Of a stretch of DNA of 20,000 nucleotides, positions 1 through 19,902 are shown one piece after another. The first letter of the stretch is position 1. Every line of letters starts with the position of its first letter. A program made the position numbers and the translations under genes. The stretch is from IMG/VR virus record IMGVR_UViG_3300025174_000006. The stretch is one strand, 5' to 3'. The notes under the pieces were generated by a model that saw only the letters and a list, made by a program, of their open reading frames with translations, ran no database searches and was not told the DNA's origin. The DNA is from an uncultured virus (IMG/VR IMGVR_UViG_3300025174_000006) (Duplodnaviria; Heunggongvirae; Uroviricota; Caudoviricetes).

Positions 1-1827
1 AAGCATAAATTTTTCAGGTTCCCCTCCCTCTCTTTTTTCGTCAATATCTTCTACTATGCATAACACATATTGAGAATTAGAAACTCTATTTACATATGAG
101 CCGGCACAATTTTTCATGTCCTGCGAAGCCTTAAGGAGTAATTCTGGTGTTCTTATCAATCTTACTTTTAAGTTTTTTTCATATTCTTCAAGAATTTTAT
201 ATTGTGAAACAAAACTTACAAATTCTTTATTTTTAGCATCATTAGAAAGTAAATTAAAATGGTCAATTAATTTATTATGATATTCTTCTAATTCCTCTAT
301 TTTTTTTATTTTGTGGAATTCTTTATTTGAATCCCAGTTGAGCGCTCTAATCATTCTAAGACTATCGTCGTAACTCGTCAAATCAAAACTCTTCAATAAA
401 GTATAATCTAAAGGTATTTTTGACAATTCTTCCTCATTTACTTCTTGAATTTGTTCTGTGTCTTTAATTAAAAATCTTTCTCTGGCATATTTCAATTCAG
501 TATTAGTTTTATTAAAAGAAAATAGTTTTTTTCTTTCTAAAGAACTTAAGGCCAACGAAATTATTTGATTAATTTTAAGCATATTCATATCTGCTCTAAA
601 TTCTAAGCTATACCATAAATTAACTAATAAATTAACATTATTTTTTTTAACAAGTTCTATAAGTTCATTAAATGAAATGAATTTAGTATATTTTATTAAA
701 ATTTTATAATCAGAAAATCTTTCTATTATATTAAAAACATATGGGGAAACACTTTTTTCTTTTATGTCTTCACGCAAAAATCTTTCACCATCTTTATTTT
801 TTCCTGTTTGATTTTCATTGTTGTTAAATCTGGAAGCATCAAACTTAAACGTTACCTCTCTTCCGCTTTCAGCCTTAAATACATAACCCATTTTTTCAGA
901 ATCATAAGCATCTAATTCTTTGCTTATTTCTTCGTTTTTATAATTTACAAGATAATTGAAAATTTTAAGAGGAGATGTTGCTCCATTATCTGATAACTCT
1001 TGTGGATTAGGAAGTTTGCAATCATTCATCATATCAAAAAGAAATATAGTTCCTTTTGTTAATGCTATTGTAGATAAGTTTGAATAGCAAATTATTCCAA
1101 AAAATATTGAGGCTACTTTTATAATAATGTCCAGTCCTGATTTACCGACCATTTGACTCATTAATTCATCTATTATATTTATGTTCTGTGAATCGGATAC
1201 AAAATTAGCCATTCTATTTATAAATAAATGAACATCAAATAATCGTTCAGTTGTCTTTACTTCTCCATAAAGAAAAAACTCTAAAACAATTGACATCACC
1301 CTATCAAGATTAAATTCAATTTCTTCCTTGCTGAAATCTTTAAAATAAAGTTTTTTGGCAGTTTTATCAAATTTTATCCAAGATAAACTTTCATTTAATT
1401 CTAAAGAAGGTTCATCTTTTGAAATGACGAAAGGCATTGACCTTTTTTTATCAAAATTTATTTTTGCTATAAATCTTTGTTTTATTAATTTAACATCATT
1501 TTCATCTTCATAAAAACAATATGACTCAAAAAATTGTTTTTCACATTCTTGAATAATTCCAGCCGTTTCCTTAGTTGAATAATCTGTATCGCATTTTTCG
1601 CATTTAAGAGAAAATCTGGCCATACTATTCTCATCGAATAAACCTGTAATATCACCTATATCAGCTCCTTCTTTTATACTTACTTTCATTTCTGAGGCTA
1701 CGACCTTTCTATCTTGTTTGATTAAATGGCCACATTTACAAAAAAATAAATCTGTATCATTTTTTGCGTCATCATAATGAAAAGTAAACTTATTTAATAT
1801 TTCTTCTTCTTTGATTAATTCTCTCAT
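1..1827 (-). CDS. PcfJ-like domain protein (partial, runs off window start, >=609 aa)
   Basis: Manually translated ORF from ATG at 1827 (MRELIKEEEILNKF...). C-terminal LLKASQDMKNCAGSYVNRV...YVLCIV resembles the PcfJ motif. Missing from the ORF track because it is truncated. Confidence 0.65.
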   Translation of the reverse strand, partial: MRELIKEEEILNKFTFHYDDAKNDTDLFFCKCGHLIKQDRKVVASEMKVSIKEGADIGDITGLFDENSMARFSLKCEKCDTDYSTKETAGIIQECEKQFFESYCFYEDENDVKLIKQRFIAKINFDKKRSMPFVISKDEPSLELNESLSWIKFDKTAKKLYFKDFSKEEIEFNLDRVMSIVLEFFLYGEVKTTERLFDVHLFINRMANFVSDSQNINIIDELMSQMVGKSGLDIIIKVASIFFGIICYSNLSTIALTKGTIFLFDMMNDCKLPNPQELSDNGATSPLKIFNYLVNYKNEEISKELDAYDSEKMGYVFKAESGREVTFKFDASRFNNNENQTGKNKDGERFLREDIKEKSVSPYVFNIIERFSDYKILIKYTKFISFNELIELVKKNNVNLLVNLWYSLEFRADMNMLKINQIISLALSSLERKKLFSFNKTNTELKYARERFLIKDTEQIQEVNEEELSKIPLDYTLLKSFDLTSYDDSLRMIRALNWDSNKEFHKIKKIEELEEYHNKLIDHFNLLSNDAKNKEFVSFVSQYKILEEYEKNLKVRLIRTPELLLKASQDMKNCAGSYVNRVSNSQYVLCIVEDIDEKREGGEPEKFML

Positions 1828-8277: not shown

Positions 8278-9096
8278 TTACAAATTTCTATTTCTACCAT
8301 CAAATATCATCATCATCTCTGTAGAACCGCTTCTTACTGGGATAAAATAATCATTTTCAAATACTATGCTATTTAAACTAGTTGAGCCTGATACATTATT
8401 GTTCCACCGATTAACTTTTGGTTTATATTTTTCAAAAAGAACAATTCTTGAATAAACATCTTCTCTTTCAAATGTGTAATCAAAATAATTTAACATTCCA
8501 GTAGATGCTGATAATGGTTGAACCGGGACGAGATCAAGAGCTATAGTTTGTGCAAAAACTTGCCTTATCATAGGAAATACTATTCCGTCAAAATTTGTTT
8601 CTTCCTTTTTTTTCTTGAATATTTTATTCCAGATAGAAACAAAAAATGATTTTATTTTTAAGAATATCTTTTTCCATTTAGAATCAAAACTTCTACTACT
8701 AACACCAATAATAGAAGATGAAAATTTACGTATTAAATCATTAGTTTCTTTTGTAGTTAATTTTCCAACCGGAACTGTATATGTTCTTTGTATCGGACTA
8801 TTAACATCATTTATAAAACAAGATGCTTGATTTTCATATAATTGAACAATATTACTTTTTTGATAACCGTGTAAACCATCAAGGAATCCTGAGTTTTTCC
8901 AATTTTTATAAATAATCTTTCTTTGATTTTCTAAATCTATGGATTTGTTGTGTTTTTCAAAGAGAACTTCTCTGGTTTCAGAACTGCTTTCTTCTTCTAC
9001 TTTTTTGGTTTCATTTACGAGATTTGTCCAATTACTAATAACATTGAACACAGAATTATCTCTTTCGGTTATTTTTATATCTAAAGGCATGTGCAA
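8278..9096 (-). CDS. Mosaic protein with major-capsid (gp23, Gol-like) and portal (gp20)-like fragments
   Basis: WKNSGFLDGL..LYENQA and FPMIRQVFAQTIALDLVPVQPLSASTG are capsid-like; RTYTVPVGKL and ENDYFIPVRSGSTE are portal-like; also carries SRIVLFEKY. Confidence 0.6.
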   Translation of the reverse strand: MHMPLDIKITERDNSVFNVISNWTNLVNETKKVEEESSSETREVLFEKHNKSIDLENQRKIIYKNWKNSGFLDGLHGYQKSNIVQLYENQASCFINDVNSPIQRTYTVPVGKLTTKETNDLIRKFSSSIIGVSSRSFDSKWKKIFLKIKSFFVSIWNKIFKKKKEETNFDGIVFPMIRQVFAQTIALDLVPVQPLSASTGMLNYFDYTFEREDVYSRIVLFEKYKPKVNRWNNNVSGSTSLNSIVFENDYFIPVRSGSTEMMMIFDGRNRNL

Positions 9097-10200: not shown

Positions 10201-10887
10201 TTATATTAATTCATATCGTTTTGCCCACTTTCTCACCGCAACATCACTAACTCCAAATTTTCTACCAAGTGCACAATATGAATTATTTTCTATCATTTCT
10301 TTTAATTCTTCTTTAGAGGGTCTGTTTTTTACTTTTCTAAAATTTAATCTAGGTACATATTTTCTCGTTGTTTTTTTATTTGTTTTATTTTTTTTTGCAT
10401 TTTTTCTGTCTACGCCAATTTTACCACGGCAATGAGTTTCTAATGTGAAATTGCAGTTTGGACATAAAAATCTTAAGTTTTCTAATCTATTATCATTATT
10501 TATTCCGTTTTCGTGGTCAATAATTAAACTAATTTTTTTACCTCTCCATATTTCTCCTTGTCCACATTCTTTACATTCATATTCTATCATGTTATTATCT
10601 CGTATTCTTTTTTTTAAACAAGCCCTTGCAACAGAACTGTTTTCACAAAAAATTTCTTCATCACTTTTCCTTAATAATCTGTCTTCATTAAACATTTTTT
10701 TAGCAAAATCACTACGGTTTAAAAAATGAGAAGTATCTATTGACCATTTATTTAAATTTGTTTTAAGTATTTTATAAGATGAAGAAGAATCGCTTCTTCC
10801 AGATTTTACTATAACATCTCTAAATGTGATGCTTTCAGATACTAATTTTTGTAATTCTTCTTTTGTATATTCTTTATGTTCTTTCAT
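10201..10887 (-). CDS. HNH homing-type endonuclease with C-terminal HTH
   Basis: CKEC...IDHENGINNDNRLENLRFLCPNC and LGRKFGVSDVAVRKW; lies inside the tRNA array. Confidence 0.85.
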   Translation of the reverse strand: MKEHKEYTKEELQKLVSESITFRDVIVKSGRSDSSSSYKILKTNLNKWSIDTSHFLNRSDFAKKMFNEDRLLRKSDEEIFCENSSVARACLKKRIRDNNMIEYECKECGQGEIWRGKKISLIIDHENGINNDNRLENLRFLCPNCNFTLETHCRGKIGVDRKNAKKNKTNKKTTRKYVPRLNFRKVKNRPSKEELKEMIENNSYCALGRKFGVSDVAVRKWAKRYELI

Positions 10888-10944
10888 AATTCTAACTTAT
10901 TTTAATGTAAATAGGTTAGAATTTTTTAATAAAGTAAATAGTTG

Positions 10945-11020
10945 AGGATAAGAAGAGAATTAAACTCCTGTTAAATATGTTTTGCAGACATATCCCGATT
11001 TCAACATTGGGTACTTATCC
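10945..11020 (-). tRNA. tRNA-Cys(GCA), copy 2
   Basis: GGATAAG/CTTATCC acceptor, U73, ATATGT-CTGCAAA-ACATAT, T-loop TTTAATT. Confidence 0.85.
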
Positions 11021-11048
11021 TTGTAAAAATTAAAAAAGTAAATAGTTG

Positions 11049-11124
11049 AGGATAAGAAGAGAATTAAACTCCTGTTAAATATGTTTTGCAGACATATCCC
11101 GATTTCAACATTGGGTACTTATCC
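11049..11124 (-). tRNA. tRNA-Cys(GCA), copy 1
   Basis: Identical to copy 2. Confidence 0.85.
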
Positions 11125-11137
11125 TTGTAAAAATTAA

Positions 11138-11409
11138 AAAAGTAAAATCCTAAGTATAGCCGCGATTTTGTTCTATCTCATCATTTATCTGAAGGTATTG
11201 CTACCAACTGGAGACTTTAAACGTCTACCACGCACCTACCCGACTATCAACAACGTAAAGGTTCCCCGTCTACAGTCTGTTTGGCTTGCATCCTATGTTG
11301 CGGAAGTACATACGCTATTTGTTATAGCTTCTTCCTCCTTTTAAAAGATGTCGCGAACTTCCTCTCGATTTTAAGAATCGAGCGATGAGTCCTTCAGGAT
11401 TTTACTTTT
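11138..11409 (-). ncRNA. rnpB: Minimal RNase P RNA (~270 nt)
   Basis: Long P1 (GTAAAATCCTGA/TTAGGATTTTAC) and P2 (CTCATC/GATGAG). Conserved blocks GAGGAAGTTCGCG, GCAAGCCAAACAG, GGGTAGGTGC, AGATAAATGA and AACAAAATCGCGGCTATA occur in bacterial RNase P order. Confidence 0.9.
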
Positions 11410-11413
11410 CTTG

Positions 11414-11485
11414 AGGCTCCACTGACAATCGATGTCAGGACTCAAATTTACAAGATTCGTGTTTTGCCACTTAAACTACGGAGCC
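11414..11485 (-). tRNA. tRNA-Thr(TGT)
   Basis: Cloverleaf GGCTCCG/TGGAGCC, anticodon loop CTTGTAA, T-loop ATCGATT. Confidence 0.9.
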
Positions 11486-11501
11486 ATTATTTGTTCTTAT
11501 G

Positions 11502-11575
11502 TGGAATCTACCGGCATTGAACCGGTCTCTCAGGCGTGCAAGGCAAGTGTTCTAAGCCAAATGAACTAAGACCCC
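11502..11575 (-). tRNA. tRNA-Ala(TGC)
   Basis: G3:U70, anticodon loop CTTGCAC; anticodon stem has two mismatches. Confidence 0.85.
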
Positions 11576-11613
11576 AATTTAATTTGTTCAAAGTACAAAT
11601 TATTAAAAACTTT

Positions 11614-11689
11614 TGGCGAGTATGACCGGTCCTGACCCGGCGACCTCCTCATAGACAGTGAGGCATTCTTCCAACTGAACTACACACTC
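11614..11689 (-). tRNA. tRNA-Asp(GTC)
   Basis: CCTCA-CTGTCTA-TGAGG, G73, encoded CCA, T-loop GTCAGGA. Confidence 0.9.
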
Positions 11690-11701
11690 ATTATTTTTTA
11701 A

Positions 11702-12010
11702 AAAAGTAAGACGCCATTTCGCTGATAGCGTTTTTTGTGTTCTGTTTAATGCGCCAAAGAACATCTGATTATGTTCAGCATTTAGCGTTCATGCTTGGTT
11801 ATTATAACATACTAACATTCCTAATATTGTCTGATTACCTATTTTGAGTTTGCATAGTAGGTTGATTTTTATTTCCAGGGTAAAAATCAACAAACAAACC
11901 TAACGTCTGATAAACTTTATTTTTCATCCGGTAAACGTTTTGTACATTGTTTAGTTCATTAGGCTAAAACAACACGTCTTTTTCACGGACAACATTAGTA
12001 ACTTACTTTT
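11702..12010 (-). ncRNA. Unidentified ~310-nt structured RNA
   Basis: Ends pair (AAAAGTAAG/CTTACTTTT), multiple nested helices, no long ORF; sits between tRNA-Ile and tRNA-Asp. Confidence 0.7.
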
Positions 12011-12014
12011 CTTG

Positions 12015-12088
12015 TAGTGCATCTGAGAATTGAACTCAGTACTTCCACGTTATCGGCGTGGCACTCTGGACCGATGAGTTAATGCACT
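12015..12088 (-). tRNA. tRNA-Ile(GAT)
   Basis: AGTGCAT/ATGCACT, CCACG-CCGATAA-CGTGG (C33). Confidence 0.9.
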
Positions 12089-12102
12089 GTTTTTATTTAA
12101 AG

Positions 12103-12175
12103 TCTAGGTGGCCTGCTCCGACCAGGCGGTCTCCAGTTCCCAAAACTGGCGGATTTCCAACTTTCCCACACCTAG
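12103..12175 (-). tRNA. tRNA-Pro(TGG)
   Basis: CTAGGTG/CACCTAG, CCAGT-TTTGGGA-ACTGG, T-loop GTCGGAG. Confidence 0.9.
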
Positions 12176-12213
12176 AAATTTTGTTTATCTTTCCAAACTG
12201 TCTTTTAATAAGA

Positions 12214-12276
12214 GTTCAAGCTCGGTTATCCACCGATTCGAAGGACTGCATTAGCCTTCTCTGCAGACACTTGAAC
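12214..12276 (-). ncRNA. Small 63-nt three-way-junction RNA with pseudoknot
   Basis: GTTCAAG/CTTGAAC, CTGCA/TGCAG and TCGGT/ACCGA stems; loop GAAGG pairs with downstream CCTTC. Confidence 0.6.
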
Positions 12277-12278
12277 AT

Positions 12279-12354
12279 TGGAGCGAAAAACCAGGTTCAA
12301 ACTGGCGACCCCCAGAGTGGAAATCTGGCGCTCTATCAACTGAGCTATTTTCGC
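12279..12354 (-). tRNA. tRNA-Gly(TCC)
   Basis: GCGAAAA/TTTTCGC, U73, encoded CCA, anticodon loop TTTCCAC, T-loop TTTGAAC. Confidence 0.92.
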
Positions 12355-12443
12355 TTATGTATATAATTCTCTCAGACCATATTACCAAGATTTACTTTGG
12401 ACTCACCGTATTTTAAAAGTGAGCAGAATTGTATTTAATTAAA

Positions 12444-13391
12444 TTATTCTAATAATAATTCATCAATTGTTAAAATTGAATTTAAATTATCTATTGTTTT
12501 TTTAAATATCATTTTAACATTAATGTTGTTTTGTTCTAATACTAAACTCATTTTTGTTTTATCTATTATTGAATAATATCCTTTAGTTTCTATGTATAAG
12601 TTAAAATTTGGCAAATAAAAATCTGGCACATACGTTTTTTCAACACCTTCTTTAATATATTGAATATATATTTTTCTAATCCACAATATTTTATTGTCAT
12701 TTAACCATTGCGACATTTTTAATTCATATTTTCCTCTTAAAGAATATTCTTCACCAATAATATTTTTTTGTTTATAAAATTTCACATGTTTAAAATTGTT
12801 ACTTATTTCATTTTCTTCTAACATCTTGGAGTGAGATTTGCTAATTTTCGATTTTTGTTCAGAAGAAAGTGGCTTTCCTAATTGGTGATGTATTCTCTTA
12901 CCAGTAGCATACATTTCTTTTTGTTGCTCAGATGCTTTATTTACCCTATTATCAGTTTCCTTTGTAAGTCCTCTTGACCATCCCATTTTTGATTTAGTCT
13001 CTGCATTACTGTATTTTTTATTTTTATATTCAACTCCATCCGGTGTATGCATTTGAAATATATGACCACATATACCAAGTTTGTGAAATATTAATTCGCA
13101 ATGAGGACATTTATATTTATCTACATCAACTTTCCAAGATTCATCTACTGTTATTTGTTTTTTATTAACTGTATTACATTTATTATAATGCCTTTCAAAA
13201 TTAGAAACAGAAATATTTTTATTACATTTATCACAACATTTTGTGTTTTTAGGTTTTCCAAGTAAAGAAATACTTAAATTTTTTAATCTTTCTTTTAACT
13301 TTGGATTAGATTCACAATTTACTATATGAGCACCAAATTGTTGTGGGATCTCAAACTCAAAAGACTCTTTGCAATGCGGACAAGTTTTCAT
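12444..13391 (-). CDS. Homing-type endonuclease (Zn fingers, NUMOD3-like segment, PD-(D/E)XK domain)
   Basis: Several CxxC...H motifs, GKPLSSEQKSKISKS and YVPDFYLPNFNLYIETKG. Confidence 0.8.
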   Translation of the reverse strand: MKTCPHCKESFEFEIPQQFGAHIVNCESNPKLKERLKNLSISLLGKPKNTKCCDKCNKNISVSNFERHYNKCNTVNKKQITVDESWKVDVDKYKCPHCELIFHKLGICGHIFQMHTPDGVEYKNKKYSNAETKSKMGWSRGLTKETDNRVNKASEQQKEMYATGKRIHHQLGKPLSSEQKSKISKSHSKMLEENEISNNFKHVKFYKQKNIIGEEYSLRGKYELKMSQWLNDNKILWIRKIYIQYIKEGVEKTYVPDFYLPNFNLYIETKGYYSIIDKTKMSLVLEQNNINVKMIFKKTIDNLNSILTIDELLLE

Positions 13392-13460
13392 ACTTTTTTA
13401 TTATAAATAGTATAAAAAATTGCAGGTTAGAAAATTGTTAGCACGTTATTGTTTTTTGAG

Positions 13461-13543
13461 TGGGAGTTGATGGAGACGAGCCACCCGAGTTTTAAAACAA
13501 CCGATTTACAGTCGGTCCCGCTACCCCTACGGAATAAACTCCC
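13461..13543 (-). tRNA. tRNA-Tyr(GTA)
   Basis: GGGAGTT/AACTCCC, ACCGA-CTGTAAA-TCGGT, long variable arm, T-loop CTCGTCT. Confidence 0.9.
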
Positions 13544-13555
13544 ATTTTAATGTTG

Positions 13556-13627
13556 CACAGACGGTTATAATCGAAATAACTACGTGTAGTTTTTGGAGAA
13601 CTCACCGACACCAAGCCTGTCGTCTGT
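13556..13627 (-). tRNA. tRNA-Trp(CCA) with atypical D-region
   Basis: ACAGACG/CGTCTGT, G73, anticodon loop CTCCAAA, T-arm GTTAT-TTCGATT-ATAAC; A8 instead of U8. Confidence 0.78.
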
Positions 13628-13666
13628 ATTTTATCTATTTTTTAAGCTGTAAGATAATTAGCTAAG

Positions 13667-13738
13667 TAGCGAAAACTGGAATCGAACCAATGTAGACACA
13701 GCTTATGAGACTGGTGGGAAACCAACATCCTTTTCGCA
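13667..13738 (-). tRNA. tRNA(CAT), Met; 1:72 mismatch, possibly initiator-like
   Basis: TGCGAAA/TTTCGCT, anticodon loop CTCATAA, T-arm ATTGG-TTCGATT-CCAGT. Lacks the three GC anticodon-stem pairs of typical initiators. Confidence 0.75.
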
Positions 13739-13751
13739 ATATATTTTTTTG

Positions 13752-13824
13752 TAGCCCCTGCCGGTCCTGACCCGACGACTTCATTCATGTAAAAAATGCA
13801 CTCTACCAACTGAGTTAAGGGGCT
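13752..13824 (-). tRNA. tRNA-Val(TAC)
   Basis: AGCCCCT/AGGGGCT, CATTT-TTTACAT-GAATG, T-loop GTCAGGA. Confidence 0.9.
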
Positions 13825-13829
13825 ATTAG

Positions 13830-13903
13830 TAGCATATATCAGAATCAAACTGATGACCTTCCTCATATGAAAAGGACGCTCTAATCAACTGAGCTAATAT
13901 GCT
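13830..13903 (-). tRNA. tRNA(CAT), elongator Met or Ile2
   Basis: AGCATAT/ATATGCT, TCCTT-TTCATAT-GAGGA, T-loop TTTGATT. Confidence 0.85.
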
Positions 13904-13913
13904 ATTTAAAAAG

Positions 13914-13985
13914 AGCGGGTGATGAGGATTAAACTCACGGCCTCATCCTTGGCAAGGATGCGCTCTATCGCTGAGCTACACCCGC
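13914..13985 (-). tRNA. tRNA-Gly(GCC)
   Basis: GCGGGTG/CACCCGC, U73, CATCC-TTGCCAA-GGATG, T-loop TTTAATC. Confidence 0.92.
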
Positions 13986-19802: not shown

Positions 19803-19829
19803 TTGAAATTATTATTTTTTAATATAAAG

Positions 19830-19902
19830 TGCTTCCAGTTGGACTTGAACCAACGACCCGAAAATTAAGAATTTCCTACTCTACCATCTGAGCTATGAAA
19901 GC
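19830..19902 (-). tRNA. tRNA-Lys(CTT)
   Basis: GCTTTCA/TGGAAGC, GGAAA-TTCTTAA-TTTTC, canonical D- and T-loops; outside the main array. Confidence 0.93.

Follow-up and report, generated by a model that had tools for sequence, protein, structure and literature searches.

The locus lies in a 20,000-nt stretch of DNA from an uncultured virus (IMG/VR record IMGVR_UViG_3300025174_000006; hereafter, the window), in which ARAGORN finds 12 tRNA genes, all on the minus strand, 8 of which also reach the Rfam tRNA threshold. A spacer at 11135-11412, running from the 3' end of tRNA-Thr(UGU) (11413..11485, directly upstream and without an encoded CCA) to 10 nt before tRNA-Cys(GCA) (11048..11124, directly downstream, with a tandem second copy at 10944-11020), is filled by a structured RNA on the same strand, a position among same-strand tRNA genes that a preliminary description of this DNA had recognized. 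The genes around the RNA are phage-like and include HNH endonucleases, a C5 methylase, an endonuclease I domain, and a Gp23-like fragment. The virus record G001 (IMG/VR; 212,632 bp, 81% complete) contains 94% of the window's sampled 31-letter words, and its alignment to a 701-base query from the locus covers 671 bases, all identical. The locus occurs in 20 sequencing runs, every one of them a DNA metagenome; four of these DNA metagenome runs gave short, identical contig pieces only and no variants at the locus, and an exact 20-mer from the window had no match in viral contigs. In addition to the RNA studied here, the array contains a 324-nt insert at 11690-12013; a second non-tRNA insert in the window has the same terminal bracket sequence as that RNA.

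RNase P RNA is the ribozyme that trims the 5' end of new tRNAs. Using cmscan in E-value mode, we found that 11141..11402 on the minus strand matches the Rfam model of bacterial type A RNase P RNA (RF00010, RNaseP_bact_a) with a score of 39.2 bits across positions 1-367 of the model (E = 1.2e-10, referring to the 801 nt scanned, 10900-11700), and RF00010 was the best member of its Rfam clan for this RNA. The score is far below the RF00010 gathering score of 100 bits, and a scan of the window at gathering scores returned tRNAs only, with no RNase P match. The alignment thus runs end to end, beneath the gathering score, with P8-P14 missing, and together with the phage-like gene context it bears out the earlier proposal of an RNase P RNA homologue in phage DNA. 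The RNA measures 262 nt by the Rfam match and 278 nt with its extended P1 (11135..11412), in agreement with the roughly 270 nt first proposed; RF00010 has 367 model positions, and three cellular rnpB genes are 335-389 nt long. Its single-sequence minimum free energy (MFE) is -81 kcal/mol (z = -4.63), and none of 200 shuffles was as stable. The motifs named in the preliminary description (P1-P5, the P6 pairing AAAGG/CCTTT, P15-P17, P7, one hairpin, and GGTA-GCAA-TACC) are all present, but on the minus strand.

All elements that follow are therefore on the minus strand. The RNA is enclosed by an extended P1, an 18-bp helix between a 5' strand at 11394..11411 and a 3' strand at 11136..11153 (flank duplex -21 kcal/mol). 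P2 pairs ACTCATC (11384..11390) with GATGAG(A)T (11175..11182), as indicated by the RF00010 alignment, which pairs P1, P2, and P3, and by covariation in the family described below; P3 is the hairpin CTCGATT-CTTAA-AATCGAG (11364..11382), found both in that alignment and in the MFE fold. CR-I (GAGGAAG) and the 5' strand of P4, AG-U-[U]-CGCGA with its bulged U, occupy 11351..11364, where the RF00010 alignment sets window GAGGAAGUUCGCG opposite consensus GAGGAAAGUCCGG. The P4 5' strand proper, AGTTCGCGA (11351-11359), pairs with TCGCGGCT at 11158-11165; the latter, CR-V (ACAAAA), and one further A make up 11157..11171, which both the RF00010 alignment and the family P4 identify. P5 joins CATCTT (11345..11350) to AGGATG (11289-11294). 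The P6 pseudoknot joins AAAGG (11337..11341), which sits 4 nt 3' of the family register, to CCTTT (11257..11261) in the P17 loop, a strand supported by covariation of P6 across the family.

The remainder of the catalytic half is equally recognizable. J5/15 GCAA and the P15 5' strand lie at 11279..11289, the P16/P17 arm (by family P16 and P17 pairing) at 11242..11277, and the 3' side of L15, GGGTAGG, with its GGU motif (consensus CGGGUagg) and the P15 3' strand, at 11232..11241; motif reading on the minus strand gives 11232-11289 for the whole P15-P17 region. Both L15 GGU and J5/15 GCAA align to the consensus and are invariant in the seed alignments from which the family model was built. P17 is weak in the window, with three G-U pairs in the MFE structure. 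Two peripheral hairpins between P15 and J18/2 appear in the MFE fold (11194..11226), namely AGAC-GTTTAAA-GTCT and, second, the P18-like GGTA-GCAA-TACC with a GNRA loop (11194-11205). CR-IV / J18/2, AGATAAATGA (11181..11190), is aligned to the consensus AGAugAAUG, opposite which the RF00010 alignment places window AGAUAAAUGA; the same alignment sets GCAAGCC-AAACA opposite GCAAggccAAAUA, CGGGUA-GGUGC opposite CGGGUaggccGC, and ACAAAAUCGCGGCUA opposite ACAGAACCCGGCUUA. The C-domain is therefore complete (P1-P5, the P4 bulged U, the P6 pseudoknot, P15-P17, L15 GGU, CR-I, CR-IV, and CR-V), and the earlier claim of an intact catalytic domain stands for every one of its elements.

The specificity (S) domain is a different matter. 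Three blocks of RF00010 comprising 15, 15, and 110 positions (P8, P9, and P10-P14; about 140 in total) are represented in the window by 17, 14, and 20 nt (51 nt). P8-P14 with CR-II and CR-III, the part that reads the tRNA elbow, are absent, and what is left is a 34-nt stub at 11302..11335, GGAAG-AA-[GCUAU AACAA AUAGC]-GUAUGUA-CUUCC. It consists of P7 (GGAAG/CTTCC, 11331-11335 with 11302-11306), a linker AA, a hairpin (GCTAT-AACAA-ATAGC, 11314-11328), and a 7-nt strand (GTATGTA, 11307-11313) between the hairpin and P7'. This layout is common in the family, in which P6 is followed by a recurring module of a 5-bp P7, 2 nt, one hairpin that often has a GNRA loop, a 7-nt strand of the GUUAnnA type, and P7'; the closing helix of the stub is present in 29 of the 35 members tested. 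The stub is thus conserved and not a random remnant. The S-domain had been described as nearly deleted, and this holds insofar as only P7, a hairpin, and a 7-nt strand remain, but the loss is not full and the architecture of what remains is conserved (29/35). Across the family the P5 strands are 2-181 nt apart (median 50 nt; the window has 52 nt), and an insert of more than 20 nt between P15 and J18/2 occurs in 8 of 20 scan-1 members among the matches listed, the rest lacking one.

A blastn search of phage sequences with the window RNA returned a single 34-nt match, in Stenotrophomonas phage DLP_6 (KU682439.2), where a clear homologue, at 105772-106022, occupies an unannotated spacer of that phage's own tRNA cluster. 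The DLP_6 copy scores 54.7 bits on RF00010, although one cmscan run, of a 501-nt DLP_6 slice, missed it. Scan 1 searched viral contigs for a 14-mer shared in the P4 5' strand and gave at least 117 loci, and 18 among the matches listed have the 3' motif at the right distance and are strong matches to R1. R1 is a covariance model built from 13 seeds, with 180 positions and 22 base pairs in P2, outer P3, P5, P15, and P16; P1, P4, and P6 were deliberately kept outside it, and P1 was examined separately. Applied to the scan-1 loci together with the window and DLP_6, R1 gave 20 matches at 42-174 bits over the full model and at most 16 bits for the other listed loci. The window RNA itself scores 134.4 bits over positions 1-180 of 180 (11157..11391, from P2 to the P4 3' strand).

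Because scan 1 fixes P4 by construction, we ran a second scan anchored on L15 and J18/2 only, leaving P4 free, which gave 44 loci, 37 of them full R1 matches. The combined alignment holds 54 matches representing 43 distinct sequences; 51 columns are conserved at 90% or more among the 42 other than the window RNA, which agrees with them at 50 of these. Beyond these 43 the family extends to two huge phages, LR756501 (735 kb; R1 146.3 bits) and LR745206 (635 kb; R1 104.8 bits), and to one metagenome-assembled genome (MAG). In about 186,000 species genomes the scan-2 pattern occurred at 35 loci, about the number estimated by chance, and 5 of these match R1. Three of the five are full-size rnpB genes of WOR-3 bacteria that score 208-243 bits on RF00010 and 39-57 bits on R1, a useful reciprocal control for R1; the other two are short, tRNA-flanked contigs of the single MAG. 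Each of the six virus records searched whole contains one copy. The window RNA is accordingly best described as a member of a conserved, mostly viral family.

Among the scan-1 family loci listed, 7 of 20 have any RNase P-clan match at E <= 0.01 and only one, L035 (178.2 bits), exceeds the Rfam gathering threshold, so standard annotation misses the family. A blastn search of phages with L035 as the query found nothing. Two low-scoring members, L157 and L144, look badly truncated.

We asked whether the proposed helices are maintained by selection using a model-guided alignment of the 43 distinct sequences, to which P4, P6, and P17 were added by hand. Standard pairs fill 91.4% of cells, compared with 69.0% in shuffles, none of 500 of which reached the observed value, and 27.7-44.6% when partners are slid by 1-3 columns; both sides change in 36 of 39 pairs, and the covariation score is 0.557 versus 0.169 in shuffles. 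Among helices inside the model, P2 is paired in 94.7% of cells with compensatory changes in 7 of 7 pairs, P15 in 98.4% (3/3), P16 in 95.9% (3/4), and P5 in 87.8%; P17 is paired in 75-82%. Since the alignment was fitted to the model for P2, P3, P5, P15, and P16, the two helices outside it, P4 and P6, are independent tests, and these are paired in 99.7% and 80.5% of cells with compensatory changes in 7 of 8 and 5 of 5 pairs, respectively. P4 consists of 8 bp and a bulged U, whose position matches that in cellular rnpB, and its variants in the family (UUCACGA/UCGUGG, UUCGGGA/UCCCGG, and GUCAGGA/UCCUGCC) identify the bulge as the second U. For P1, native flanks at 45 loci fold at -13.06 kcal/mol; swapping the partners gives -5.71 (sd 2.9), and at 26 of the 45 the native energy lies under the 5th percentile of the swapped ones. 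Covariation therefore supports P2, P3, P5, P15-P17, and both pseudoknots, P4 and P6, and we are all but certain that the RNA is homologous to RNase P RNA and that selection acts on its structure.

A possible link to full-size RNase P RNA is provided by L035, a 303-nt RNA on a 176,837-bp viral contig rated 100% complete. It scores 178.2 bits on RF00010, above the gathering threshold, and contains P8, P9, P10/11, a short P12, P15-P18, and CR-II/III sequences. L035 and the family share a derived P4, GAGGAAGUUCGCGAC / ACAGAAUCGCGGCUA, whereas the rnpB genes of WOR-3 bacteria have the canonical GAGGAAAGUCCGGAC / ACAGAAUCCGGCUUA. Four pairs differ between the derived and canonical forms; three of these are fully compensated, and the fourth changes from G-C in the canonical form to a U-G wobble. 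One history consistent with this is a viral rnpB lineage whose S-domain shrank at a later stage, an order of events that we infer.

Taken as a whole, the locus appears to encode a phage-borne, miniaturised RNase P RNA of the bacterial type (type A). Like the cellular type A RNAs (RF00010; rnpB, or M1 RNA), it has a full C-domain, the P4 bulged U, and a 7-bp P2; it differs from them in being phage-encoded, in the absence of P8-P14 and CR-II/III, in its P4 as compared with that of WOR-3 bacteria, and in score (39 bits for the window versus 208-243 for cellular rnpB, with gathering at 100). The closest parallel in architecture is the archaeal type T RNA of Thermoproteaceae (Chan, Brown and Lowe 2012, PMC3579882), which, in passages of that report, keeps the catalytic domain, has lost most of the S-domain, and is missed by the standard Rfam model; its P10 either is missing or ends in a small loop, so that the S-domain is mostly absent in both and the truncation is capped in a similar way. 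According to the same passages, type T has an archaeal type A-like C-domain with a 3-bp P2 and a shortened P15 and P5/P15 linker (PMC3579882). The phage RNA, by contrast, has a 7-bp P2, a bacterial P15 with L15 GGU, a J5/15 linker of bacterial consensus, and RF00010 as its best model in the clan. Given the 7-bp P2, the linker, and the clan ranking, we read the resemblance as a probable convergent reduction on a bacterial scaffold, parallel to that of type T, and not as membership in type T.

Two further systems are informative. The engineered C-domain of the E. coli RNA (Eco CP RPR; Mao et al. 2018, PMC5839562) is described in parts of that study as active whether or not the C5 protein is present, with an efficiency that is reduced by S-domain removal and depends on a P6-like pairing, P18 being dispensable. 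In the phage family, too, P6 is conserved and P18 is frequently missing. That construct is a laboratory deletion, whereas the phage RNAs are natural, evolved, and carry a conserved P7-hairpin stub. In portions of the report on CPR bacteria (Lui et al. 2021, PMC8172020), RNase P RNAs without P12, P13, P14, and P18 fall below Rfam thresholds and needed manual refolding. Those RNAs are cellular, constitute the sole essential copy, and keep much of the S-domain, and some are described as lacking the L15 UGG that the phage RNA keeps (PMC8172020). Phage T4 rnaC and rnaD (AF158101.6) are also small stable non-tRNA RNAs ending a phage tRNA array; kinship with these was rejected, as R1 with filters off scored no higher than 2.3 bits anywhere in the T4 tRNA region.

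The relation of the RNA to tRNA genes can be followed across the family. At least one tRNA gene is present in the fetched flanks of 18 of 45 distinct loci, and within 100 nt of the RNA at 15 of 45, ARAGORN counts that are lower bounds, since cmscan saw tRNAs in one locus (L095) that ARAGORN did not. All 78 of the 78 tRNA genes in family flanks are on the strand of the RNA. With 27 of 45 loci showing no tRNA in the fetched flanks by ARAGORN, linkage to tRNA arrays is common and not obligatory; neither huge-phage copy has a tRNA within 1.2 kb. In the window, terminator prediction gave no candidate site between tRNA-Thr and the RNA, and promoter-like sites were no commoner than in shuffles (15 found versus 16.6 expected). 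Co-transcription of the RNA with the neighbouring tRNAs is plausible.

Some of the window tRNAs are themselves unusual. Gly(UCC), Met, and Gly(GCC) have 'GA' in the D-loop together with a T-loop UUUGA or UUUAA, which we read by eye as A19:U56 and not G19:C56, and, by the same reading, the Asp, Val, and Pro tRNAs have T-loops of the GUCRGGA type, so that 6 or more of the 11 distinct tRNAs in the window appear by eye to have non-canonical elbow positions. These elbows are compatible with the unusual-substrate idea of the preliminary description and argue weakly for its suggestion that the host might process the window tRNAs poorly. CCA is encoded by 2 of the 12 window tRNAs, tRNA-Asp and tRNA-Gly(UCC), and contact with L15 through CCA would consequently need prior CCA addition.

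We also searched for a protein partner. No RnpA-like frame was found in G001 (81% complete), and four of five further records likewise lacked one (DLP_6, LR756501, and the contigs of L035 and L011). The fifth, LR745206, encodes an intact RnpA of 115 aa (PF00825, 49.2 bits against a cut-off of 22.3; TIGR00188, 43.8 bits against a cut-off of 38.35). That genome has no RF00010 match, and the mini RNA is its sole R1 match, so a single phage carries genes for the two subunits, and no RNA but the mini RNA is a candidate partner for its RnpA. Use of host RnpA by the window phage is assumed because none was found in the near-identical G001.

The substrate contacts of type A RNase P are made through the acceptor stem and leader, J5/15, L15-CCA, and the protein. 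We consider the RNA most likely to be the catalytic RNA of a predicted phage RNase P that borrows the host protein, and we give activity in tRNA 5' maturation a probability of roughly two in three. The RNA would be transcribed together with the adjacent tRNAs, and its ends could be made by the cuts that free tRNA-Thr on its 3' side and tRNA-Cys, 10 nt downstream, on its 5' side; the 18-bp P1 might aid release, add stability, or serve as a double-strand processing site. The released RNA would bind host RnpA and cleave the 5' leaders of phage, and perhaps host, pre-tRNAs, recognizing them mainly through the acceptor stem, leader, and 3' end and not through the tRNA elbow. Several considerations count against this explanation: the RF00010 score of 39.2 against a gathering score of 100 bits, the lowered efficiency that accompanies S-domain loss in E. 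coli (PMC5839562), the failure to find an RnpA frame in G001 or in four of five other records, the need for CCA addition to most window tRNAs, the 27 of 45 loci with no tRNA in the fetched flanks, and the weak P17 of the window. A bolder version is speculative and, in our estimate, somewhat doubtful: a phage-evolved RNase P lineage, repeatedly shrunk to near the catalytic minimum and the smallest natural bacterial type, may act free of the elbow as a hybrid whose protein is host RnpA or, in some huge phages, the phage's own, tuned to phage tRNA arrays including A19:U56 tRNAs, which would free phage tRNA maturation from host control of RNase P or make it resist that control.

Other roles can be imagined for such an RNA. 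It might be a non-catalytic decoy or regulator that retains the surfaces for binding RnpA and substrate, titrates host RnpA or pre-tRNAs, and so re-routes or throttles host RNase P during infection; most carrier phages have no rnpA, which obliges the RNA to compete for the protein of the host, and the reduced activity of E. coli constructs on S-domain loss (in the relevant passages of PMC5839562) points the same way. Yet the near-invariant sites are those of the catalytic core (the P4 bulged U, CR-I, CR-IV, CR-V, J5/15 GCAA, and L15 GGU) and extend beyond the protein-binding face, and one phage brings its own RnpA, which a sponge for host protein would not need, making this role rather unlikely. 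Alternatively, an active ribozyme might act mainly on non-tRNA substrates, such as phage mRNAs, RNAs of the array (for example the insert at 11690-12013), or its own precursor. Such a preference would accommodate the 27 of 45 loci, both huge-phage copies included, without a tRNA in the fetched flanks, as well as the second window insert with the shared bracket sequence; it sits poorly with tRNAs that, where present, abut the RNA (15/45 within 100 nt, all on the same strand) and with the retention of L15 GGU and J5/15, which in type A RNAs contact the tRNA 3' end and the cleavage site (PMC10465520, in part, and general knowledge of the enzyme). We therefore hold it to be improbable.

The comparative data bear on two more explanations. 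The coexistence of the full-size L035 with progressively shorter forms, the 2-181-nt range of the insert between the P5 strands, and the truncated appearance of L157 and L144 would all be expected of a decaying, functionless relic of a full-size phage rnpB. Decay is disfavoured, and indeed very unlikely, given compensatory changes in 36 of 39 pairs over 43 distinct sequences, the 50 of 51 conserved positions kept in the window, the conserved layout of the S-stub, and the single copy in each of the six records searched. As for a chance likeness in an inter-tRNA spacer, or some other structured RNA unrelated to RNase P, the sub-gathering score and the one cmscan run that missed the DLP_6 homologue are what could be said for it. 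An E-value of 1.2e-10 over the full model, 54.7 bits for DLP_6, 178 bits for L035, and P4 and P6 pseudoknots that covary exactly at RNase P positions leave it with hardly any probability; the full-model match, L035, and the P4/P6 covariation refute it computationally. Catalysis in tRNA 5' maturation thus stays our preferred reading.

To our knowledge, only two ribozymes are universal; RNase P RNA, one of them, is regarded as a cellular or organellar gene. The ribozyme itself is known; what appears to be new here is the viral setting and the natural reduced architecture on a bacterial scaffold. We found no description of a phage-encoded RNase P RNA in our searches of an open-access collection of papers. 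Term look-ups in gene-finder papers, a metagenome rnpB survey, and reviews returned none in the passages covered, phages appearing there only as a source of tRNA substrates (PMC2996960, PMC7191817, PMC1874661, PMC6582537, PMC4919922, PMC11143913, PMC10941002, PMC8172020, PMC12636597). If our interpretation is correct, a viral RNase P RNA lineage would bring a catalytic RNA from the translation apparatus into the known phage gene repertoire. Such a lineage would also offer a natural answer to the question of how much of a bacterial RNase P RNA function requires; that the family keeps P6 and drops P18 and P8-P14 is in line with the predictions of deletion studies, and its members might serve as compact scaffolds for structural work and ribozyme engineering. 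There is also an annotation gap, as one of 20 family loci among the matches listed exceeds the Rfam threshold and the copy in the cultured phage DLP_6 is unannotated, and DLP_6 itself provides a culturable system for testing the function of the family.

The mini RNA, an RNase P-like RNA that lies between tRNA-Thr and tRNA-Cys (window 11135-11412, minus strand), shares the bracket sequence of its outer P1 stem with a second non-coding insert of the tRNA array. This insert, 324 nt long, occupies window 11690-12013 (minus strand) between tRNA-Ile and tRNA-Asp; it has no match in Rfam, its fold z-score is -2.4, and it contains a terminator-like hairpin at window 11731-11711. Its first bases are AAGAAAAGTAAG and its last CTTACTTTTTT, a bracket that also makes up the outer P1 in the RNase P-like RNA. 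Within the window the bracket's 11-mer, matched exactly, is found at only two sites, one in the insert and one in the RNase P-like RNA, each directly 3' of a tRNA. The common bracket could represent a processing stem used by both, a terminator or the scar of an insertion.

Just 2 nt from the P1 3' strand of the RNase P-like RNA ends a 104-nt tandem duplication (window 10926-11133; copies 99% identical) that carries two tRNA-Cys(GCA) genes. Because the corresponding locus of G001, a near-identical virus record, holds a single tRNA-Cys against two in the window, tRNA-Cys copy number appears, from these sequences, to vary among close relatives. Interspersed in the array are an HNH endonuclease ORF (window 10201-10887, minus strand) and an endonuclease-I-domain ORF (window 12444-13391, minus strand), an arrangement reminiscent of T4, whose tRNA cluster houses the homing endonuclease segB. 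The window also encodes a 272-aa ORF (8278-9096, minus strand) whose sole match, at 25.1 bits to the Pfam Gp23 major capsid family, is weak and limited to the N-terminal 60 residues of that family; it may be a fragment of a capsid gene or a decoy-like domain.

L035, a bridging member of the family (350-652, minus strand), is a type A RNase P RNA that is nearly complete (303 nt, 178 bits): only P13/P14 are missing, and P12 is short. Its source is an IMG/VR viral contig of 176,837 bp with a completeness rating of 100%, and tRNA genes lie on both sides of the RNA, ~290-440 nt away. The 635-kb uncultured huge phage LR745206 encodes both an intact RnpA, the RNase P protein, and a mini RNase P RNA, ~425 kb apart (L168 1465-1812, plus strand, equivalent to the LR745206.1 76444-76752 region; L165/L173); the LR745206.1 record carries no annotation.

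The window tRNA genes (10944-13985 and 19829-19902, minus strand) have non-canonical elbow positions in at least 6 of 11 distinct tRNAs. In Gly(UCC), Met and Gly(GCC), GA in the D-loop goes together with UUUGA or UUUAA in the T-loop, a combination that looks like A19:U56 replacing G19:C56, and the T-loops of Asp, Val and Pro read GUCAGGA or GUCGGAG. Asp and Gly(UCC) alone encode CCA. In the whole-window scan, four of the tRNAs called by ARAGORN (Ile, Pro and the two copies of Cys) fell below the Rfam tRNA threshold; tRNA-Asp was missed there as well, yet scored 47.4 bits in an 801-nt search.
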